Positions 27,045 to 41,751 of a stretch of DNA of 64,000 bases are shown in pieces. How positions within the stretch are numbered: the first letter of the stretch is position 1; each line of letters opens with the position of its first letter. Position numbers and translations under genes: made by a program. This DNA comes from Bradymonadia bacterium (lineage in GTDB: Bacteria > Myxococcota_A > Bradymonadia > UBA7976 > UBA1532): the NCBI GenBank assembly GCA_046290225.1, contig JBKAGE010000079.1, positions 32,001 through 96,000 of the forward strand. The letters are read 5' to 3'. The notes under the pieces were generated by a model. It did no database searches and was not told the origin of the DNA. It saw nothing but the letters and a program-made list of their open reading frames with translations.

Positions 27045-30000
27045 ATGATGAAGCACACCCCCCGTTCTATCCGTCGCCGCCCTCAGGGCCGGCACCTCTC
27101 CAACCTCGCGATGACTTTGTGGTCACTGCCCCTGATCGCCATGGTGATGAGCGGGTGTACCCGGTCGAACCCCGCCAACGGGCCAGGGGACGGGGACTTC
27201 GAACCGGATCTGGCGGCGCCCTTCATCGAGGGGGAGCTGCTGGCGCGGTTCCCCGTGGGCATGACCCGGGAAGAGGTCCAGGCCCGCGTGGAGCCCTGGG
27301 GTGGCCAGGTGCTCGACGGCCTCACCTCGGAAGATCTGGAGGTGATGTCCGAGTCCACCATGGTGCACCTCGGCGGCACATGGCGCATCGGCCTGCCCAG
27401 CGGGGTCACCGTGGAGGAGGGCATCGAGCTCCTCGGCGCCGAGGACGATCTGGTGCTCGCGGAGCCCAACCACATCGTCGAGGCGGTGAAGACCCCGAAC
27501 GATCCCGACTACAACCAGCTGTACGGCATGGAGAAGATCAGCGCGCCGCTGGCCTGGGACGTGACCACCGGCAGCCGCGACGTGGTGGTGGCGGTCATCG
27601 ACACCGGGGTGGACTACAACCACCCCGATCTCGCCGACAACATCTGGACCAACCCCGGTGAGATCCCCGACAACGGGGTGGACGACGACGGGAACGGGTA
27701 CGTCGACGACTACTACGGCTACGACTTCTGCAACAACGACGCGGATCCCTTCGACGACCACTACCACGGCACCCACTGCGCTGGCACCGTGGCCGCCACC
27801 GGGGACAACAGCCGCGGCGTGCCCGGTGTGGCTTGGCGGGCGAGCATCATGTCGATCAAGTTCCTGTGTGGGAACGGCAGCGGCAGCTCCTGGGCCGCTG
27901 CTCGGGCGATCCGCTACGCCGTGGACAACGGCGCGGTCATCTCGAGCAACTCCTGGGGTGGCACCGGCCGGTCGAGCAGCATCTCCTCGGCCATCGACTA
28001 CGCCCGGGAGCGCGGTCAGCTCTTCATCGCTGCTGCGGGCAACTCCAACAAGAACATGGATCACACGAACTTCTATCCGGCGGGCTACGACCACGACAAC
28101 ATCATCAGCGTCGCCGCCAGCGACAGCAGTGATCGTCGGGCGAGCTTCAGCAACTACAGCAGCAGCCGGGTCGATCTCGCGGCCCCTGGTGTGCGCATCC
28201 GCAGCACGATCCCCAACAACCGCTACGGCAGCCTCTCGGGGACCAGCATGGCGGCGCCTCATGTCTCCGGCGCTGCGGTCCTGCTCAAGGCCCGCGATCC
28301 GGAGATGAGCTACGCCGCCGTGAAGAACCACCTGCTGGAGTCGGTGGATCCCTTGGACAACTGGAATGGCGTCGTGGCCACCGGCGGCCGGATGAACGTC
28401 GCCGCAGCCCTGGGCCGCGTGGCCCCGAAGCCCGAGGCACCCACTGGGGTGGTGGCCTCTGTGCTCGACGGCAGCCGGGCCGAGGTGAAGTGGCAGCCCA
28501 GCCCCGACGAAGGGGTGACCACCTACTACGTGCACCTCTACGACGCCGACGGCATGCCCATGCCCCCACTCGTGGCCATCGAGGGCCGGGACAACACTCA
28601 GGCGGTCCTCGGGCCCCTCGACGCCGGTGATTACCTGGTGGCGGTGAGTGCCCTGAACAGTGTCGGGGAGAGCGCGCAGTCACAGCAGGCGCGCTTCAGC
28701 CTCGTCGACGCAGATCCCCCGGCGCAGGTGCCTGATCTGCGGGTGACCCCCCTCGAGGGCGATCTCGTCGCCGTGGAGGGTGCCGAGGCCGACAGTGACT
28801 TCGGCCCCGACTGGACGGTGTCCCACCTCGTGGACGACGACGCGTCTACGGCGTGGGCCGCAGAGCCTTCTGCGGCTCAGCAGCCAGCCACGGTGGTCTT
28901 TGATCTGGGTCAGGTGAAGGATGTGGGCCAGGTGAAGCTGCGCCCCGCCGCGGGCTTCCCGGAGCTGTTCCCCCGGGCCTTCGAGGTGGCCGCCTCTGTG
29001 GACGGCGAGCAATGGACCACGGTGATCCGCGAGATCCCCGAGGGGCCGAACGATGGTGGGGTGATGGGCCGCGATCCCCTCGTCGAGTGGCACCCCTGGA
29101 TCATCGATCCCGTGCCCGCCCGCATGCTGCGCCTCACGGTGACTGAGCGGGCCGAGCACGAGGGCGGCCTCTTCTACGCTGTGGTGGGCGACGTGGCCTT
29201 CCACGAGCAGGCCCTCGACTCCAGCGCGCTGCTGGCGAGCTGGACGGCCCCCGGTGACGATGGCGGCGCCGGCCGCGCTGCTTCTTTTGACCTGCGGGCC
29301 GCTCCGGGCCTCACCGCCGATGGTTTCGACGCCGCTCCCAAGTTCCCCACGCCGGAGCCGGGCATGGCGGGCACCCGCCACTTCGCCACCCTCTCGGGCC
29401 TGCCCGGAGAGACCGAGATCGGGGTGGCCATCGCCGCCCGCGACGAGTCGGGCAACCGGGGTCCGCTGTCGAACATTGCCGTGGCCCGCACCCTCGGTGT
29501 GGCCCCTGGCGGCATCGACGATCTCGAGGTCACCGCCGACGGCGAGGCTGTGGTCCTGAGCTGGACGGCCCCCGCTGACGATGGTCGCGATCCCGCCAGT
29601 GGCCCTGTGGCCAGCGTGCGCATTCAGGTGTCGAACTCACCCCTCGACTCGGCCCACTGGGCCGACAGCGAGCCTCTTCAGGTGTCGGTGCAGCCTGTGG
29701 CCCCCGGCACCCGCCAGGTGGTCCGGGTGGAGAACCCCCTCGAGGCGCTGCCCCAGGGTCCGCGCTGGTTCTTCCGCGTGCGGGCCGTGGACGAGGCGGC
29801 CCTGCTGGGTCCCTGGTCCAACGAGGGCGCTCTCAACGCGCCCCCCCGCTTCGATCAGAGCCCCCCGGGGACCATCAGCTTCCTCAACGGCCACTATGTG
29901 GCGGCGTTGTCGCAGCCTGTGCTCATGGCCGTGGACGGCGACGCTGACCGGTTGGCCCTGCTCGATCGCGATCCCCGTACGGGCTGGATGGTGGAGGCCG

Positions 30001-33000
30001 ACGCCGACGCTGGGGTGACCCTGAGCTTCGGCCAGGTCGAAGGGGAGGCCTTCCCCCTGACCCGCGTGCGCCTCTTGCCCCACATGCTCTACCCCGGCGA
30101 CGTGCCCGGGGAGATTCAGATCATCGCCCCGAGCCCTCAGGGTGGGGGCGAGATGGTGCTCACCCGCCGCGTGATCCCCCAGGAGGAGATCGTACCCGGG
30201 CAGCCCATCGACCTGGACTTCGCCCCGGTGATGACCCGCGAGTTCAAGGTGCAGCTGCTGGCGCCCCGCGAGCGCTTCGGCCTCACGGCGGTGGCCCTCG
30301 CAGAGGTCTCGGCCTACGAGGCCCTGCCCGGCGGCGGTGCCGCCCGCCTGACCTGGGTGGCCCCTGGCGACGACGGCTTCGAAGGCCTCGCTGAAGAGTA
30401 CGACCTGCGCCGCAGCGACGCCCCCATCGAAGGCGGCGCCTTCGACCAGGCGGAGCCCGTGGGCCCCATCGCCGCACCCCAGCTCGCCGGGGCCCTCGAG
30501 GTCACCGACGTCGGCGGCCTGCCTGAGGGTCGCGACAGCTGGTTCGCTCTGCGCACCCGTGACGACGCGGGCAACTGGAGCGGCGTCTCCGAGACCGTGC
30601 GGGTCTCGGTCCCGGCGATCCCCCCTGGCGGGATCGTCGACCTGCAGGTGGTGGAGACCGGCAAGGACAGCGCCATTCTCAGCTGGACCGCCCCCGGCGA
30701 CGATGGCGACGTGGGCACGGTGACCGACTACGATCTGCGCTTCGCCGAGTCCCCGATCACCGTAGAGAGCTTCCCCGACGCCATGCGCGTCGAGGCACCG
30801 GAGCCCAGCCTCGCTGGCACCCTGGAGCGCGTGCAGGTCTCGGGCCTGCCCTCGGGGCGCACCCTGTACTTCGCCGTGATGGCTCGAGACGAGGTGGGGG
30901 CCTCCTCGGGTCTGTCCAACATCGCCGAGGGCACCACCCGAGAGAGCACGCCGCCTTCGCCGGTGGCTGATCTCACCGCTGGCGCCGGCCCCGAGACCGG
31001 GAGCATCCTGGTGGCCTTCACCGCCTCCGGTGACGACGCCAGCCAGGGCACCGCTGCGGCTTACGACCTGCGCTACGTCATCGGTCAGGAGATGTCCCCC
31101 GAGGGCTTCGAGCAGGCCATCCCCATTCCTCTGAACACCCGGCCTCAGCAGGCCGGCGCCCGGGAGCTGCTCACCCTCGCGGGTCTGCCCGCAGAGACCG
31201 ACATCGCCCTGGCCCTGGTGGTCATCGACGACGCGGGCAACCGCTCGGGCATGTCCAACGTGGCCCCTGTGCGGGTGCCCGGCGCTGCCCCTTCCCAGGT
31301 GAACGATCTGGCCATCGCCCAGGCGGGGGCCAACGATATGGTGGTGCAGTTCACCGCCGTGGGGGACGACGGCTTGGAGGGCACCGCCGCCCGCTACGAC
31401 CTGCGGGTGAGCGCTTCGCCCATCAGCAACGACGGCGACTTCGACCAGGCCCGCTCGGTCCCCGTAGGGGCCGCCAAGCCCGCAGGTGAGCGCATGACCG
31501 TCTCGGTGCCGGGCCTCGACGACGCCACGCTCTACCACTTCGCCGTGGTGGCCTTCGACGACGCAGGCAACCGCAGCCCCTTGTCCAACCTGGCCTCGGG
31601 CTACACCGCCGACGCCACCGCCCCGGAGGCCATCGGCGACCTGCGCGCCCAGGCCCAGCCCAGCGGCACTTCGGCCCTCGAGGCCAGCATCGCCGGTGAC
31701 ACAGACGCATACGGTGAGGCCACCGGCCCCGAGCTGTTGCTCGACGGCAGCAGCCAGAGCGCCTGGATCACCCCTGTTCGGGATGCCGCCTCGGAGGAGT
31801 CGGTGGTCATCGCTGTCCGCGGCGCCGACGGCGGCCTCGCCGAGGTGGCGGGGATTCGCCTGCGGGCCGCTGCGGACTACCCGGACCTGTTCCCCAGCAC
31901 CTTCACCATCGAGGCCCACGACGGCACCGGCGCGGATCCGCTCTCTGCCGACGTGCCTGAAGAGGGCTGGCAGGTGGTGGTGCGCAGCGAGGGCGCCAGC
32001 GCCAGCGCAGCCGAGGCGCTGGAGCGCAGGTTCGCACCTCAGCAGGCCCGCTGGCTGCGCCTGCGCGCCGAGACCGAGATCGACGAGGCTGGCCGCCACC
32101 TGCTCGCCGTGGGTGACTTCGAGGCCCTCGCCGCCGACAACGGCAGCGCCTCGGTGCAGCTGACCTGGACCGTCCCCAGCGACAAGGGCCCCACGGGGCG
32201 TCCTGCGCGCTACGAGGTGCGCTACGCCGCCTTCCCCCTCACGGCAGAGAACTTCGAGCAGGGGACCGAGGCCGGCGCCGGCGCGCCCAGCCAGCCCGGG
32301 GGCCCCGAGGCCCTCGTGGTGAGCGGCTTGAACCCCGAGACCCGCTACCACTTCGCCGTGGTGAGCATCGACGACGCCGGCAACCGCAGCGCCCTGAGCA
32401 ACAGCGCCGAGGCCGAGACCCCTGGGGTGGCCCCTGGCACCGTGCTCGATCTGCGAGGCACGGAGCTGGAGCAGGATCGCCTCGTGCTGACCTGGACCGC
32501 CCCTGGCGCCGACGGCGACGCTGGCGGCTCCGCGGATCGCTACGACATCCGTATGAGCGCTGCGCCCATCACCGTGGACAACTTCGAGCAGGCGGCCATC
32601 GTCGAGGGCGCCGGCGGCCCCGCTGTGCCCGGTGAGGTGGAGCGCCTGCCGGTGGCGGGCCTCGAGCCCGGTACGGACTACTACTTCGCCCTGCGGGCCT
32701 ACGACGGCGACGAGGCCAGCGCCCTGTCGAACGTGGCTCAGGTGCGGACCCTGGAGCCCCCGGAGCAGGTGCCCCCGGCCACAGTGCAGGACCTCGCCGC
32801 CACCACCGACGAGCGGGTTGCTGGCGCCGTTGCCGTGACCTGGACCGCCCCAGGCGACGACGGCAACCTCGGCCAGGCCACCCGCTACGACCTGCGGTGG
32901 TCTGCGTCGCCCATCAACGACGGCAACTTCGCCTCCGCGACGTCCGTGCAGGGTCTCGATGCCCCTCAGGCTGCTGGGGCCCAGGAGTCCACCATCGTCA

Positions 33001-36000
33001 CTGGTCTGCCGGGAGAGAGCGCGGTGTGGTTCGCCCTCGTGACCTACGACGACGTGGGCAACATGAGCGGCCTGTCGAACATCGCCGAGGCGGCCACTCG
33101 GGCTGAGCCCCCGGCGCAGATCGTCGATCTCGCCGCCGAGGTCCGTGGGGCCGAAGGGGTGCTGACCTGGACCGCCCCTGGCGCTGATGGCGAAGAGGGT
33201 CGGGCCGCGGCCTACCAGCTCTACATCGAGACTGCCCAGTTCGACAGCGTCGAGGGTCTCACCCCTGTGGCCGACGCCCCGGCGCCCGCTGAGGCAGGCA
33301 GCGCCGAGCAATATGTCGCCGCGCTGAGCAACGACACCACCTACTACGCCGCCATCCGCGCCATCGACCCCCAGGGCAACCCCGGGCAGCTGTCGCCGGT
33401 GGTGGGCTTCCAGACTGACGATGGCGTGGCCCCTGGCCGCCCGGTGCAGCTCGTGGCCCGGACCGGCGACGCCGCCGGTACCCTGAGCGTCTCCTTCGGC
33501 GCCCCCGGTGACGACGGCTACGACGGCACCCCCGCCCAGTACGAGGTGCGCTGGTCCACCAGCGCCTTCGACGCCGCGGGCTTCGAGCAGGCCAACCTCT
33601 ATGTGGGTGACCTCGCCGTGGGCGTCGGTGGCAGCGAGCACACTCTTACCCTCTCGGGCCTGCCCGGTGAGCAACGCATCTACGTGGCGCTGCGGGCCAC
33701 CGACGACGCCGGCCTCGTGGGCGACATCTCTGATGTGGCCAGCGCCGAGACCCCCGATGTGGCCCCGAGCCAGATCGCCGACCTCACCGCAGAGTCGGTG
33801 GGCGACGGCGGCATCGCCCTGCGCTGGACCGCCCCCGGCGACGATGGCGCCGAGGGCACCGCCGTGGCCTACGAGGGCCGCATGGGCACCGAGCCCGTCA
33901 CCGAAGACAACTTCGACCAGATGCAGCCGATCCCCAACCTCGGCGCCCCCGCTCAGGGCGGCGCCGCGGAGTCCCTCGCTGTAGAGGGCCTCGCCGGCAA
34001 CACCACCTACCACTTCGCCCTGCGAGCCATCGACGAGCGGGGCAACCGCGGCGCGCTCTCCGCGAGCGCCTCGGCGAGCACCCCCGATCAGGCGGGCCCG
34101 GCCCCTGTGGCCGACCTGCAGGCGCAGACCGGCAACAACGCCGGTGAGGTGATCCTCACGTGGACCGCCGCCGGTGACGACGGCATGGAGGGCACGGCCT
34201 CCTCGGTGGAGATCCGCTACGCCGGAGACGCCTGGCCCGGGTTCGAGCAGGCTGCTGTGGCCCAGGCCGCGGTGACGCCCGTCGCCGGTGGCGAGCGCCA
34301 CGAGGTGACTGTGACTGGCTTGCCCAGCGAGTCCGACCTGACCTTCGCCCTGGTGACCGTCGACGAGGGCGGCAACCGCGCGGCGCCCTCGAACGTCGCC
34401 GCAGCTCAGACCCTCGGCGTGGCCCCTGGCGCACCGAGCGACCTCATCGTCGCCGCCGAGGGCGCCGCGGCCCTGCGCCTGCAGTTCACCGCCCCCGCTG
34501 ATGATGGCGACGACGCCGAGAGCGGCGCCGTGGCCGCCCTGGAGATCGCTTACAGCACCGAGCCCTTTGACGGCGCCGACTTCGACCAGCAGCAGCGCGT
34601 CGCCGGCCCCGCCCCCGAGGCCCCCGGCGCCACGCAGTCGGCGGTCATCGAGGGTCTGCAGAGCAACACCACCTACTATGTGGCGGTCCGCGCCGCCGAC
34701 GAGCGGGCGCAGATCGGCCCCTCCAGCGCTGTGGTGGAGACCCGCACCGGTGACGGTGAGGCCCCCGGCCGCGTGGCGAGCCTGCAGGCCGCGAGCCCTC
34801 AGGGCGGGGGTGAGCCCGTACAGGTGGTGGCCGTGAACGGCAGCGCCTCGCTCTCCGAGGCCTGGCCGGTGTCCCACGCCTTCGACGGCGAGCAGGACAC
34901 GGCGTGGGCGTCTCCCCCTGGCGGTGGCGAGGGCAGCTTCCTCGAGGCCAGCTTCGGTGCCCCCACTCGCATCGGCCGTGTGCGTCTGTACGTCGGGGAG
35001 TGGGTGGATCGGTTCCCTGCGGACATCGCCCTGAGCGCTGACGGTGAGATCATCGCCGAGGCTGGGGATCTCGCCCCTGACGCCCACAGCTGGGTGGAGC
35101 TCTCCTTCGAGCCCGTCGCCGCGGAGCAGATTCGCCTCGACATCCTCCGGGCCGGTGGCGACGACGACCTGGGCTACGCGGTCATCAACGAGATCTCCGT
35201 GATGCCCGCCGACGACGCCCCCGACACCATCTCCCTCACCTGGGTGGCCCCTGGCGACGACGACAACAGCGGTCAGGCCGCGCGCTACGACGTGCGCATG
35301 AGCACCGCCCCCATCACCCCGGAGACCTTCGCCGACGCCACCCCCGTGGACGGCGCCCCGGCCCCTGGCGTCGCCGGCACCCCCCAGCAGATGCAGGTGG
35401 AGGGCCTCGACGAGGAGACCACCTACTTCTTCGCCCTGAGGACCTACGACGAGTCCGACAACGCCAGCGCGCTGTCGAACGTCGCCGAGGCCACCACCAA
35501 CGGTGTGCCCCCGGCCCGGGTGGAGGATCTCGTCGCCGAGGCCGATGGCCCCTACGCCGCGGTGCTCACCTGGACCGCCGTGGGCGCCGATGGCCACGTG
35601 GGCACCGCCGCCCGCTACGACCTGCGCTACCGCCCCTACGATCTGTCCGACGCCACCTGGCACGAGGCCATCCCCGTCGAGGCCCCGGCCCCTGCAGCCT
35701 CTGGCGCACAGGAGACCTTCCGCGTAGATGGTTTGCTCCCCGGCACGCTCTACGCCTTCGCCCTGCGGGTGGAAGATGAGCGGGGCCACGTGTCGCTCAC
35801 CTCTGTGGTGGCCCGGACCCTCACTGGCGACGGCCCCGACGAGGTCGCCCCTGGCCAGATCACTCGCCTGACGGCCCGCGCCGCCGGCGGTGACGGGCTC
35901 CCTCTGGCCCTGGCCTCTGCCGAGGCCTCGGGCTCACAGTTCCCCGACTTCCCTCAGTCCGCCGCCATCGACGGCGATCCCGACACCGCCTGGGCCTCTC

Positions 36001-36584
36001 CGGCGAAGGGTGAGGGGGGCGAGGAGGTGCTCACGGTGCAGCTCGCCGAGGTCACCGCCGTCGACGAGGTGAACATCCTGCCCCACGACGACTTCCTCGA
36101 CCTGTTCCCTGAGGACATGCGCATCGAGACGTCTGTGGACGGCGAGGTTTGGGACACCTTGTTCCAGTACAACGGCCCCTCCGGCTCTGGCGGTGTGGTG
36201 TGGATGGGCGAGGCCACCCCGGTACAGCACGTGCGCATCACCGTGCAGCGTCGGTTCCGGGATCCGGCCTTCCTGGCGGTCATCGGCGAGGTGCGCCTCT
36301 TCGAGGCCGGTGTGGGCGGTACCGCGCTGGTGAGCTGGCAGGCCCCCGGTGACGACGACCAGATCGGCACCGCCACCCGCTACGAGATGGCCACCGTGCA
36401 GCCCGGCCAAGAGGCAGCCTGGTTCGAGCCCGAGCTGGCTCCGGCTCCCGCTGGCGCCCCCGAGGCGGTGTTGCTGAGCGGCCTGCCCGCCGGCGACATG
36501 GTCATCATGATCCGCGCCATCGACGAGGCCGGGAACGTTGGCCAGGCAGCGGAAGCCTCGGTGACCATCAACCCGGTGCAGTAA
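27045..36584 (+). CDS. Giant S8 (subtilisin-like) serine protease lipoprotein with about 18 FN3 and 5 discoidin-like domains
   Basis: Catalytic triad VIDTG, HGTHCAG, GTSMAAP; lipobox MSGC; 17 WTAPGDDG-type repeats plus one more FN3; DGD..TAW..FP..F.. discoidin-like inserts. Confidence 0.92.
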   Translation: MMKHTPRSIRRRPQGRHLSNLAMTLWSLPLIAMVMSGCTRSNPANGPGDGDFEPDLAAPFIEGELLARFPVGMTREEVQARVEPWGGQVLDGLTSEDLEVMSESTMVHLGGTWRIGLPSGVTVEEGIELLGAEDDLVLAEPNHIVEAVKTPNDPDYNQLYGMEKISAPLAWDVTTGSRDVVVAVIDTGVDYNHPDLADNIWTNPGEIPDNGVDDDGNGYVDDYYGYDFCNNDADPFDDHYHGTHCAGTVAATGDNSRGVPGVAWRASIMSIKFLCGNGSGSSWAAARAIRYAVDNGAVISSNSWGGTGRSSSISSAIDYARERGQLFIAAAGNSNKNMDHTNFYPAGYDHDNIISVAASDSSDRRASFSNYSSSRVDLAAPGVRIRSTIPNNRYGSLSGTSMAAPHVSGAAVLLKARDPEMSYAAVKNHLLESVDPLDNWNGVVATGGRMNVAAALGRVAPKPEAPTGVVASVLDGSRAEVKWQPSPDEGVTTYYVHLYDADGMPMPPLVAIEGRDNTQAVLGPLDAGDYLVAVSALNSVGESAQSQQARFSLVDADPPAQVPDLRVTPLEGDLVAVEGAEADSDFGPDWTVSHLVDDDASTAWAAEPSAAQQPATVVFDLGQVKDVGQVKLRPAAGFPELFPRAFEVAASVDGEQWTTVIREIPEGPNDGGVMGRDPLVEWHPWIIDPVPARMLRLTVTERAEHEGGLFYAVVGDVAFHEQALDSSALLASWTAPGDDGGAGRAASFDLRAAPGLTADGFDAAPKFPTPEPGMAGTRHFATLSGLPGETEIGVAIAARDESGNRGPLSNIAVARTLGVAPGGIDDLEVTADGEAVVLSWTAPADDGRDPASGPVASVRIQVSNSPLDSAHWADSEPLQVSVQPVAPGTRQVVRVENPLEALPQGPRWFFRVRAVDEAALLGPWSNEGALNAPPRFDQSPPGTISFLNGHYVAALSQPVLMAVDGDADRLALLDRDPRTGWMVEADADAGVTLSFGQVEGEAFPLTRVRLLPHMLYPGDVPGEIQIIAPSPQGGGEMVLTRRVIPQEEIVPGQPIDLDFAPVMTREFKVQLLAPRERFGLTAVALAEVSAYEALPGGGAARLTWVAPGDDGFEGLAEEYDLRRSDAPIEGGAFDQAEPVGPIAAPQLAGALEVTDVGGLPEGRDSWFALRTRDDAGNWSGVSETVRVSVPAIPPGGIVDLQVVETGKDSAILSWTAPGDDGDVGTVTDYDLRFAESPITVESFPDAMRVEAPEPSLAGTLERVQVSGLPSGRTLYFAVMARDEVGASSGLSNIAEGTTRESTPPSPVADLTAGAGPETGSILVAFTASGDDASQGTAAAYDLRYVIGQEMSPEGFEQAIPIPLNTRPQQAGARELLTLAGLPAETDIALALVVIDDAGNRSGMSNVAPVRVPGAAPSQVNDLAIAQAGANDMVVQFTAVGDDGLEGTAARYDLRVSASPISNDGDFDQARSVPVGAAKPAGERMTVSVPGLDDATLYHFAVVAFDDAGNRSPLSNLASGYTADATAPEAIGDLRAQAQPSGTSALEASIAGDTDAYGEATGPELLLDGSSQSAWITPVRDAASEESVVIAVRGADGGLAEVAGIRLRAAADYPDLFPSTFTIEAHDGTGADPLSADVPEEGWQVVVRSEGASASAAEALERRFAPQQARWLRLRAETEIDEAGRHLLAVGDFEALAADNGSASVQLTWTVPSDKGPTGRPARYEVRYAAFPLTAENFEQGTEAGAGAPSQPGGPEALVVSGLNPETRYHFAVVSIDDAGNRSALSNSAEAETPGVAPGTVLDLRGTELEQDRLVLTWTAPGADGDAGGSADRYDIRMSAAPITVDNFEQAAIVEGAGGPAVPGEVERLPVAGLEPGTDYYFALRAYDGDEASALSNVAQVRTLEPPEQVPPATVQDLAATTDERVAGAVAVTWTAPGDDGNLGQATRYDLRWSASPINDGNFASATSVQGLDAPQAAGAQESTIVTGLPGESAVWFALVTYDDVGNMSGLSNIAEAATRAEPPAQIVDLAAEVRGAEGVLTWTAPGADGEEGRAAAYQLYIETAQFDSVEGLTPVADAPAPAEAGSAEQYVAALSNDTTYYAAIRAIDPQGNPGQLSPVVGFQTDDGVAPGRPVQLVARTGDAAGTLSVSFGAPGDDGYDGTPAQYEVRWSTSAFDAAGFEQANLYVGDLAVGVGGSEHTLTLSGLPGEQRIYVALRATDDAGLVGDISDVASAETPDVAPSQIADLTAESVGDGGIALRWTAPGDDGAEGTAVAYEGRMGTEPVTEDNFDQMQPIPNLGAPAQGGAAESLAVEGLAGNTTYHFALRAIDERGNRGALSASASASTPDQAGPAPVADLQAQTGNNAGEVILTWTAAGDDGMEGTASSVEIRYAGDAWPGFEQAAVAQAAVTPVAGGERHEVTVTGLPSESDLTFALVTVDEGGNRAAPSNVAAAQTLGVAPGAPSDLIVAAEGAAALRLQFTAPADDGDDAESGAVAALEIAYSTEPFDGADFDQQQRVAGPAPEAPGATQSAVIEGLQSNTTYYVAVRAADERAQIGPSSAVVETRTGDGEAPGRVASLQAASPQGGGEPVQVVAVNGSASLSEAWPVSHAFDGEQDTAWASPPGGGEGSFLEASFGAPTRIGRVRLYVGEWVDRFPADIALSADGEIIAEAGDLAPDAHSWVELSFEPVAAEQIRLDILRAGGDDDLGYAVINEISVMPADDAPDTISLTWVAPGDDDNSGQAARYDVRMSTAPITPETFADATPVDGAPAPGVAGTPQQMQVEGLDEETTYFFALRTYDESDNASALSNVAEATTNGVPPARVEDLVAEADGPYAAVLTWTAVGADGHVGTAARYDLRYRPYDLSDATWHEAIPVEAPAPAASGAQETFRVDGLLPGTLYAFALRVEDERGHVSLTSVVARTLTGDGPDEVAPGQITRLTARAAGGDGLPLALASAEASGSQFPDFPQSAAIDGDPDTAWASPAKGEGGEEVLTVQLAEVTAVDEVNILPHDDFLDLFPEDMRIETSVDGEVWDTLFQYNGPSGSGGVVWMGEATPVQHVRITVQRRFRDPAFLAVIGEVRLFEAGVGGTALVSWQAPGDDDQIGTATRYEMATVQPGQEAAWFEPELAPAPAGAPEAVLLSGLPAGDMVIMIRAIDEAGNVGQAAEASVTINPVQ

Positions 36585-40098: not shown

Positions 40099-40173
40099 TG
40101 GAGCCGTGAGAGGGACTCGAACCCCCGCCTTCTCATTACGAAAGAGATATTCTCCCCGTTAAACCATCACGAC
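40099..40173 (-). tRNA. tRNA-Thr(CGU), atypical body
   Basis: Cloverleaf GUCGUGA/UCACGGC, loop UU-CGU-AA, UUCGAGU T-loop, U73, encoded CCA; U31-U39 mismatch. Confidence 0.85.
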
Positions 40174-40186
40174 GGCACTGATGTTG

Positions 40187-40258
40187 AGCTGCGAGGGGGA
40201 GTCGAACCCGCGTCTCCTCCCTACCATGGAGGCGTTCTGGCCGTTGAACTACCGCAGC
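40187..40258 (-). tRNA. tRNA-Thr(GGU), atypical body
   Basis: GCUGCGG/UCGCAGC, D-stem GUUC/GAAC, loop AU-GGU-AG, one C-C mismatch in T-stem, U73 followed by CAA. Confidence 0.8.
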
Positions 40259-40293
40259 GCTCAGTATCTTGTTCTCAAAAGCAAAATGTGTAG

Positions 40294-40365
40294 AGCCGCG
40301 AGGGGGAATCGAACCCCCATCTCATCGTTGGCAACGATGCGTCCTAGCCGTTGAACGACCGCGGC
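40294..40365 (-). tRNA. tRNA-Gly(GCC), atypical C3:G70
   Basis: GCCGCGG/UCGCGGC, stem CAUCG/CGAUG, loop UU-GCC-AA, T-arm GGGGG-UUCGAUU-CCCCC, U73 followed by CUA. Confidence 0.85.
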
Positions 40366-40372
40366 GAATTGT

Positions 40373-40446
40373 TGGAGCCGTGAGAGGGAATCGAACCCCC
40401 ACCCCCTCAGTACAAAAGAGGGATTCTGCCATTGAACCATCACGGC
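40373..40446 (-). tRNA. tRNA-Thr(UGU), atypical body
   Basis: GCCGUGA/UCACGGC, loop UU-UGU-AC, U31-U39 mismatch, U73, encoded CCA. Confidence 0.85.
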
Positions 40447-40485
40447 GCTCAGGTACGCGTCATTTGGACATCAAACTCTGTGTAG

Positions 40486-40557
40486 AGCCGCTGGGGGGAA
40501 TCGAACCCCCATCTTCTCCTTGGAAGGGAGCCATTCTGGCCATTGAACTACAGCGGC
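40486..40557 (-). tRNA. tRNA-Gly(UCC), atypical C3:G70
   Basis: GCCGCUG/CAGCGGC, loop CU-UCC-AA, G27-A43 mismatch, U73 followed by CUA. Confidence 0.85.
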
Positions 40558-40558
40558 A

Positions 40559-41055
40559 TCCGGCCCTGCGGCGGCGATAGCCGCCGTGAGGCCTCCCTGC
40601 GTTTCTCCCGTTGCGACCGTGAGGCTGATCGGGGGACGGATCGAAAGGGCGATCTCGCCGATCAGCCTTTGGCCGCATCGGATACAGGGGCCACGGTGAA
40701 GTGGCGGATGTCCAACGACAGGCAGACCTGTCGTACGATCATCGAAACATGGCATTCTCCTCGCCCCCTCGGGGCTGAGTTGCACGTGTTGTGGTGGAGC
40801 TGGCCGGAGTCGAACCGGCAACCTTCTGCGAGCCATGCAGGTGCTCTCCCAGTTAAGCTACAGCCCCACAAATATTTGGTGTTTCAGTCGTTCAGTCTTG
40901 GCCCGAAAGGGGTGCCCGACGCTGTGTCGAGGCGCCCCGATAACTTGTCCGTCTATGCCCGAGACAATCCCGCATCCCCCTCTCACCTGATCCCAGTCGA
41001 GATCGGAAATGGCGAAGGGAGTCCCCACGGCGGCTGGCGCCGCCGCAGGGGCGGA
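40559..41055. repeat. Pair of 40-bp inverted repeats (40559-40598 and 41016-41055) within structured tRNA spacers
   Basis: Manual alignment gives 35/40 identity in inverted orientation; each copy is itself a GC-rich hairpin. Confidence 0.85.
40792..40867 (-). tRNA. tRNA-Ala(GGC) with unusual U37
   Basis: GGGGCUG/CAGCUCC with G3:U70, A73, CCA; loop AU-GGC-UC. Confidence 0.85.
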
Positions 41056-41059
41056 CAAG

Positions 41060-41132
41060 TGGAGCTGGGCGGAATCGAACCGCCAACCTTCCCCGTGCGA
41101 GGGGGGTGCTCTCCCAATTGAGCTACAGCCCC
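41060..41132 (-). tRNA. tRNA-Ala(CGC)
   Basis: GGGGCUG/CAGCUCC with G3:U70, A73, loop CU-CGC-AC; followed by CUU, not CCA. Confidence 0.88.
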
Positions 41133-41424: not shown

Positions 41425-41465
41425 AAATGAAAACGCCCGCCTCTCCAAGCCAGGAGGGGCGGGCG
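41425..41465 (-). terminator. Intrinsic terminator (attenuator) upstream of the tRNA array
   Basis: CGCCCGCCCCUCC-UGGCUU-GGAGAGGCGGGCG followed by UUUUCAUUU. Confidence 0.85.
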
Positions 41466-41511
41466 CCGCGTAGAACCGTGTTGTTGAACGATTCTAGGGC
41501 GTTACCCCTCC
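41453..41511 (-). promoter_or_regulatory. Antiterminator hairpin overlapping the leader ORF 3' end and the terminator 5' arm
   Basis: GGAGGGGU/GCCCCUCC, CGCC/GGCG and UAGAAUCGU/ACGGUUCUA nested pairings; mutually exclusive with the terminator. Confidence 0.75.
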
Positions 41512-41673: not shown

Positions 41674-41751
41674 AGCAAGGGCTCCAGAGTTGTGACCCGC
41701 CTTGGGGTCATGGGTTCAATGTGTGAGTTGTGTATGTCAGAGACGTGTATG

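Follow-up and report, generated by a model that had tools for sequence, protein, structure and literature searches.

Glycine and threonine tRNAs with one shared body in a spare, putatively attenuator-controlled tRNA operon of a Bradymonadia bacterium

Leader-peptide attenuators, such as those of trpL, hisL, thrL, ilvL, pheL and pheST, encode a short ORF rich in the amino acids being sensed, and its stop codon lies just before alternative antiterminator and terminator hairpins that include a U tract; multivalent examples are the thr and ilv leaders. A search by title and abstract opening, with subscription papers outside its scope, found no attenuator control of tRNA genes in the literature. 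Bacteria and phages commonly carry spare tRNA arrays, and the one case worked out so far relies on a protein repressor. In Anabaena PCC 7120, the trn L-array is an extra, divergent tRNA set beside a full housekeeping set; its distribution is patchy, it has links to an RNA ligase and to stress on translation, and TrcR represses it (PMC8421152, PMC10272220). The array responds to ribosome-targeting antibiotics (PMC8421152), and the words "attenuat" and "leader" are absent from the accessible text of PMC8421152 and PMC10272220.

The operon described here has the ORF-antiterminator-terminator layout of the trpL, hisL, thrL, ilvL and pheL attenuators and would be multivalent like the thr and ilv leaders. 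The genes under its control would, however, be tRNAs rather than enzymes, and leaders of this type are longer (26–71 codons), with control codons that are scattered rather than in tandem. The tRNA set to which the operon belongs resembles the Anabaena trn array in being extra, divergent, patchy and linked to an RNA ligase and translational stress. Unlike that single contiguous array, it is split into clusters of 1–10 genes on several contigs, attenuation rather than a repressor appears to control the clusters, and the Gly and Thr tRNAs of the Anabaena operon lack a common body.

The window analyzed is a 64,000-nt stretch of a Bradymonadia bacterium (assembly GCA_046290225.1, contig JBKAGE010000079.1, positions 32,001–96,000 of the forward strand). 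ARAGORN and Rfam called five tRNAs on its minus strand at 40099–40557, transcribed in the order Gly(UCC), Thr(UGU), Gly(GCC), Thr(GGU) and Thr(CGU) (Table 1), and their RF00005 scores of 51.9–67.4 bits against a cut-off of 29 place all of them among cloverleaf tRNAs. An earlier note on this DNA had recognized the five genes and their common body; it had omitted the two tRNA-Ala genes and the leader, which lie upstream on the same strand in the same operon, and had recognized neither the attenuator nor the second tRNA set that extends across the genome. The five genes are likely the Gly/Thr part of a spare Ala/Gly/Thr operon, itself one module of a chromosome-wide second set. A sugar-kinase-like gene and an acyltransferase gene, both on the opposite strand, flank the operon. 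The Ala-Gly spacer (40559–40601) contains a short, GC-rich hairpin repeat that also matches contigs C12, C18 and C43. Elsewhere in the window, a 3179-residue ORF on the plus strand (27045–36584), with a subtilisin-like N-terminal part and many repeats, is by eye a likely secreted protease.

Table 1. Features of the Ala/Gly/Thr operon, in window coordinates, and leaders ahead of other accessory tRNA clusters.
Feature	Location	Strand	Details
Putative sigma70-type promoter, TTGACC, 17 nt, TAGAAA	41752–41780	minus	Read by eye
Shine-Dalgarno-like GGAG, 8 nt before leader start	41682–41685	minus	From the sequence
Leader ORF, GTG start, 59 codons	41494–41673	minus	24/58 Ala/Gly/Thr
Predicted antiterminator hairpin	41453–41511	minus	Terminator 5' arm pairs with the end of the leader (last codons and stop) and the spacer
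Intrinsic terminator with U tract, about -28 kcal/mol	41426–41465	minus	28 nt past leader stop
tRNA-Ala(CGC), accessory copy	41059–41132	minus	ARAGORN, Rfam
tRNA-Ala(GGC), accessory copy, A32 and U37	40792–40867	minus	
tRNA-Gly(UCC)	40486–40557	minus	Shared body; C3:G70, C5:G68; ARAGORN, Rfam
tRNA-Thr(UGU)	40373–40446	minus	Shared body; U31:U39, C38, CCA encoded
tRNA-Gly(GCC)	40294–40365	minus	Shared body, all pairs formed
tRNA-Thr(GGU)	40187–40258	minus	Shared body; A32/G38, C50:C64 mismatch
tRNA-Thr(CGU)	40099–40173	minus	Shared body; U2:G71 wobble, U31:U39, CCA encoded; sister of Thr(UGU)
Tandem duplication of Gly-spacer-Thr unit	40174–40557	minus	Repeated flanks
Val/Arg/Lys/Ile cluster leader	C20		Own amino acids 20/34, p=2e-6
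Leu/Ser/Tyr cluster leader	C37		Own amino acids 20/34, p=4e-8
Gln/Glu/Asp/Phe cluster leader	C42		Own amino acids 17/31, p=2e-5
Trp cluster leader	C77		Trp 2/25, p=0.04; fails base shuffle (p=0.11)
Leu/Ser/Tyr leader	G095		21/35
Asn/Cys/Gly/Phe/Ala/Thr leaders	G095		40/53 and 52/70
Asn/Cys/Gly/Phe/Ala/Thr leader	G099		31/55

All five Gly/Thr tRNAs possess U73, a GUUY/GRAY D-stem and a 4-nt variable loop, and none has G3:C70, which is replaced by C3:G70 in four, including both Gly genes, and by U3:A70 in one. Outside the anticodon arm, Thr(GGU) matches Gly(GCC) at all but 8 of 55 positions. These observations of the earlier note stand, but its description of the body as Gly-like does not suit this genome. 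U73 is not specific to Gly here, being carried by three of the four housekeeping tRNA-Thr, and the housekeeping tRNA-Gly (n=3), like the tRNA-Thr (n=4), all have 5-nt variable loops and RCUC/GAGY D-stems. The five-gene body is therefore unlike either housekeeping set, whereas identical housekeeping bodies would have counted against the earlier proposal. The genome (8.58 Mb, 64% GC, 99% complete) yields 96 ARAGORN tRNA calls, and among the 70 class-I-like tRNAs readable by the parser, Thr(GGU) and Gly(GCC), identical at 37 of 43 fixed positions, are the closest of 2255 pairs with different amino acids (mean 24.5, sd 4.4). Four of the top 11 such pairs fall within the five-gene cluster.

An Arg-to-Thr anticodon shift has reportedly been produced experimentally in E. 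coli. In alloacceptor anticodon shifts, duplication and anticodon change leave a tRNA that is closer to another amino acid's family (PMC3923123, PMC4783518). Such recruitment has been described mainly in eukaryotic and organellar genomes, whereas here the whole Gly and Thr complement of a bacterial operon shares one body. In a tree of 39 Gly, Thr and Ala genes built without the anticodon, the five form a single clade (99/97), grouping with tRNAs of another amino acid rather than with their own; its rows came from this genome, two genomes of another family (G095 and G099) and Anabaena, and it left out the 18 of 57 rows that had been fetched with hybrid-body patterns. The clade has as its sister an accessory G099 gene for Thr(CGU) and falls on the Thr side (87/95, 89/97). 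Constraining all Thr genes to group together gave a p-AU of 0.043, and constraining all Gly genes gave 0.077. The tree of all 57 rows is weaker, with support of 85/61. Identical sequences of 7 nt follow both Gly genes, and identical sequences of 6 nt precede Thr(UGU) and Thr(GGU), these repeated flanks indicating that a Gly-Thr gene pair underwent duplication. With the clade, the flanks and the different housekeeping bodies, the earlier proposal that the genes arose by duplication and anticodon switching between Thr and Gly is well supported by comparison of the genes. A single tRNA gene would have been duplicated and its anticodon switched, after which the Gly-Thr pair would have been duplicated and Thr(UGU) would have given rise to Thr(CGU). 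The first reading, in which Thr had been built on a Gly body, was set aside given the weak 57-row tree and the position of the five beside the accessory Thr(CGU) of G099 in the smaller one. We lean toward a switch from Thr to Gly, a direction that would account for C3:G70. Thr/Gly switching would be easy because both synthetases ask for the same acceptor top (G1-C72 and C2-G71) and discriminate at bases 35 and 36.

Parallels exist for each half of the body. Pattern searches for Thr genes with this D-stem and variable loop returned 49 GTDB loci, 22 of them with titles naming Patescibacteria groups and several in long arrays, as well as 74 viral loci, and a Rhodothermales genome (L067) has a Thr of this type at the thrU place of a tuf-type Thr-Tyr-Gly-Thr cluster. 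Likewise, tRNA-Gly with C3:G70 occur at 15 viral loci and as three genes in G095 and G099. The joint Gly/Thr body was matched in 1 of 113 genomes of the class and 1 of 401 of the phylum, in no case beyond the present genome, using exact patterns and with many of the genomes incomplete, and there is thus no cross-species conservation to vouch for it. No Gly-Thr pair, of the 84 compared from 42 other loci, matched at more than 35 of 43 positions. A BLAST-type search with the cluster against 61 relatives matched stretches of housekeeping-type tRNA-Ala only, a metagenome scan for the shared body gave three unrelated loci, none of 36 records from a phage search covered 80%, and the Gly pattern with an 8-nt D-loop matched no viral locus. 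Many Patescibacteria tRNA-Thr(CGU) (L025–L073) have a GUUC/GAAC D-stem and a 4-nt loop and often lie near a tRNA-Gly(CCC). In G099 (L139:502), a tRNA with a GCC anticodon, A73 and G2 sits on a long branch within tRNA-Ala and is perhaps another recruitment.

Conceivably, the operon came from a mobile tRNA array, with its Thr copies now decaying, gene conversion having homogenized neighboring genes, and the hybrid body unselected. All three Thr genes are irregular (U2:G71, U31:U39 twice, C50:C64, A32/G38 and C38), Thr(GGU) is nearer to its Gly neighbor (37/43) than to Thr(UGU) (32/43), as conversion would give, and the distribution is patchy. The Gly genes are clean except for G27:A43 in Gly(UCC). 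Genome-wide, 19 of the 34 accessory tRNAs have an irregular anticodon arm, against 11 of the 36 housekeeping ones (p=0.053), the accessory label being set by cluster position and including two C34 genes that are probably housekeeping. The other stems, however, are irregular in only 4 of 34 accessory tRNAs, much as in housekeeping ones (2 of 36). Of the 105 stem cells in the five tRNAs, 101 are paired, and 7 of the 21 pairs show two-sided changes. The three Thr and two Gly anticodons all differ and, with wobble, suffice to read every codon for Thr and Gly, and the promoter, reading frame and switch are retained in related strains. Acquisition followed by decay is judged improbable.

Non-proteinogenic tRNA-Gly of staphylococci have lost the D-loop GG, have an altered T loop and carry pairs in the T stem that are weak for EF-Tu. 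The five tRNAs instead all keep the D-loop GG, the TTCGA T loop, G49-C65 and G51-C63, which, with the translated-looking leader at the head of the operon, speaks against the non-ribosomal aminoacyl donor role that the earlier note had offered as one of three options. Another of its options was cross-charging, with Thr placed on Gly anticodons or the reverse for stress mistranslation. Bacterial Gly identity elements are listed as U73, G1-C72, C2-G71, G3-C70, C35 and C36, and those of Thr as G1-C72, C2-G71, G4-C69, G5-C68, G34, G35 and U36 (PMC9976931 Table 1). By this list, a bacterial determinant, G3-C70, is missing from both Gly genes, whose acceptor stem is Thr-like, and G5-C68 is missing from the Thr genes; mischarging of tRNA-Thr isoacceptors is mentioned in the same source (PMC9976931). 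The earlier point about the missing G3:C70 is weakened: the bacterial list includes it, but the third pair is described as mattering in yeast more than it does in E. coli or Thermus thermophilus (PMC9976931). Moreover, the genome encodes one ThrRS (C78) and a dimeric GlyRS (C80), with no α2β2 GlyRS, and tRNA-Gly with C3:G70 recur in two other genomes, under both GlyRS types, and in the viral loci. Anticodon bases 35 and 36 are determinants for both enzymes (PMC9976931), and each of the five genes keeps its own (C35 and C36 in Gly, G35 and U36 in Thr). Since the Gly and Thr identities coincide at the top of the stem and part at these two bases, one body could serve both. The second set also spans 19 amino acids, as a replacement set would, and none of eight proteins scanned has an aminoacyl-tRNA transferase domain. 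Cross-charging of the five tRNAs is unlikely, cross-charging and donor roles taken together are given very little credence, and correct decoding by anticodon appears the likeliest of the three options.

The putative promoter ahead of the leader was read by eye, and a scan for consensus promoters called none. The GGAG is identical in two strain contigs (X1 and X3) and in two RNA contigs that span the site. Ala, Gly and Thr are enriched in the leader 1.6-fold over the proteome (p=0.009; base shuffle p=0.001), and the ORF has no Pfam match. This is the weakest of the multi-amino-acid leaders, Ala and Gly being common in a 64% GC genome, and it includes three GCA codons although the operon has no Ala(UGC) gene. 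Nine substitutions separate the leader ORF from those of related strains, without stops or frameshifts; four are silent, two are gains of Ala or Gly, one is a Gly loss and two are others (five of nine change the residue). Four strain changes within the switch leave both folding energies unaltered. RNA contigs from two studies span 41508/41511–41727 with the same 5' end at 41727, a weak hint that the leader is transcribed; the sequencing runs contained only 5–7% of words, and their contigs of this organism reach the leader and not the Gly/Thr genes.

Between this leader and the tRNA genes lies the intrinsic terminator, whose 5' arm is also predicted to be captured by an antiterminator (fold of about -34 to -38 kcal/mol, capture of -16.3 kcal/mol); 3 of 300 shuffles captured the arm equally well. 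In folding models, the antiterminator disappeared once the stretch covered by a ribosome at the stop codon was masked. When the full transcript is folded to equilibrium, most models of a stalled ribosome favor the terminator, and the choice made by the switch would therefore have to be kinetic. General folding gave no evident separate 1:2 (anti-antiterminator/pause) hairpin of the trpL kind and, with two states and no evident upstream sequestering helix, an untranslated leader should also read through. On these models, an attenuation switch ahead of the operon is quite probable. A ribosome finishing the leader at its stop codon would open the antiterminator, allowing the terminator to form and turning the tRNA genes off. 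A ribosome stalled on Ala, Gly or Thr codons, or the absence of translation, would instead leave the antiterminator in place and RNA polymerase would read through.

The second, divergent tRNA set of this genome serves 19 amino acids, and its clusters are organized by amino acid. A leader and terminator precede five of the 18 tRNA starts inspected, and all five belong to the nine accessory-looking starts; the other four of the nine, including the Cys, Pro and Asn/His clusters, lack a leader. The amino-acid sets of the five are disjoint, and each leader is enriched in its own set only (Table 1). Accessory clusters are present in G095 and G099 too, where a simple scan of 41 loci found four leaders ahead of three clusters and none at the remaining loci, which are most of the 41. 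Across nine leaders, the gap from stop codon to terminator is 20–37 nt and an antiterminator folds in all nine. Its capture of the terminator arm beats shuffles in eight (at most 6 of 300 as good); the exception is the Leu/Ser/Tyr leader of G095, where 74 of 300 did as well. A composition-blind scan of the genome, which replaced a natural antiterminator control that had only three sites, found 369 terminator-like sites, 17 of them with a short ORF led by a Shine-Dalgarno sequence. Capture of -12 or stronger was predicted at five of seven sites ahead of tRNAs and at 24 of 362 others (Fisher p=4e-5).

Several further observations concern the set and its surroundings. In G095 (L114, G095:C658), two leader-terminator units stand in tandem ahead of one nine-gene tRNA operon. 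The starts of contigs C20 and C24 carry an identical repeat, and the two Arg genes of C24 thus probably continue the Val/Arg/Lys/Ile operon. At C37:77832–77917, the "Thr(UGU)" called by ARAGORN has a long variable arm and is, by eye, a third accessory tRNA-Tyr called one base out of register. G095 (L093:1094–1924) and G099 (L104:47–122) have accessory tRNA-Leu whose variable loops are short, a trait shared with the Anabaena trn operon, and an array-type Ser pattern is exact in 3 of 113 class genomes, with two more at two mismatches. A well-formed tRNA with a CUA anticodon (C14:27995–28067, L082, minus strand; 65 bits, tRNA-Pyl according to ARAGORN) is a possible amber suppressor. Finally, four tRNA-like RNAs lie among two tRNA-Pro at C34:374630–375560 (L078), with a conserved insert containing GUCCGA or UUCCGA in place of the anticodon loop, and they adjoin a TROVE-domain gene (about 376000–377770, L249). 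They probably resemble Y RNAs but, in contrast to YrlA, have the orientation of a tRNA; the fourth has 15 bases of its 5' end in common with the Thr(UGU) of the window.

Such a switch could also sense translation arrest in general, as caused by antibiotics or ribosome damage, in the manner of uORF switches before ribosome-rescue genes. The tRNAs would then be a bulk supplement, as proposed for Anabaena trn, and the amino-acid match would merely fine-tune the response or be inherited from a donor element. A two-state switch that reads through when untranslated fits general sensing, as does the induction of the Anabaena array by antibiotics. The same design, moreover, heads an EF-Tu gene and an RNA ligase gene. 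The second, divergent EF-Tu gene (C57:43020–44700, L247, minus strand) follows a promoter, a Leu/Ser-rich leader of 39 codons and a look-alike terminator, with no tRNA behind, and a DRB0094-type RNA ligase, a candidate tRNA repair enzyme (C34:29900–31400, L248, minus strand), lies behind a look-alike leader and terminator; both units also count in favor of the preferred reading. General sensing would not, however, need leader composition to track differing groupings in three genomes: Ala/Gly/Thr form one group here, and Asn/Cys/Gly/Phe/Ala/Thr form one in G095 and G099. That grouping differs between the genomes and the leaders follow it is the strongest sign, from sequence comparison, that leader composition has been selected, and general sensing is regarded as rather unlikely.

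The shared body may also bear on toxin resistance. FaRel2 selects tRNA-Gly and tRNA-Thr through pairs 1, 2 and 4 and a purine at position 5, and does not read pair 3 (PMC11559606), the pair stressed by the earlier note. All four determinants are present in the seven housekeeping Gly/Thr genes of this genome, whereas all five spare genes have a pyrimidine at position 5. The five descend from one ancestor, and this loss thus counts as a single event. In G095 and G099, nine of nine accessory Gly genes lack one determinant, five of five accessory Thr genes keep all four, and two of four housekeeping Thr genes lack one. Escape from FaRel2 as a general rule for accessory tRNAs was rejected on account of those accessory and housekeeping Thr genes. 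Any diverged stem would tend to lose FaRel2 determinants, and the loss of purine 5 is consistent with escape without being diagnostic of it. A secreted toxin, TreThr, is specific for tRNA-Thr(GGU) (PMC13617354). Escape of the five tRNAs from tRNA-targeting toxins is plausible; toxin-resistant tRNAs described from phages (PMC10264068) are phage-borne, whereas the present genes are chromosomal and their resistance putative.

Taken as a whole, a spare tRNA operon under leader attenuation, with amino-acid-specific sensing and correct decoding, is on balance the probable reading of the locus. Its tRNAs would be charged, decode by anticodon and replace housekeeping tRNAs that are cut, modified or scarce, and toxins that target tRNAs may act poorly on their divergent body. 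If this is true, attenuation would extend from amino-acid supply to tRNA supply, with the identity of the leader codons setting the response, and the leaders could readily serve as reporters of toxins that act on specific tRNAs. The Gly/Thr clade would exemplify anticodon recruitment occurring naturally in a bacterium, and it makes clear predictions about charging and toxin resistance.
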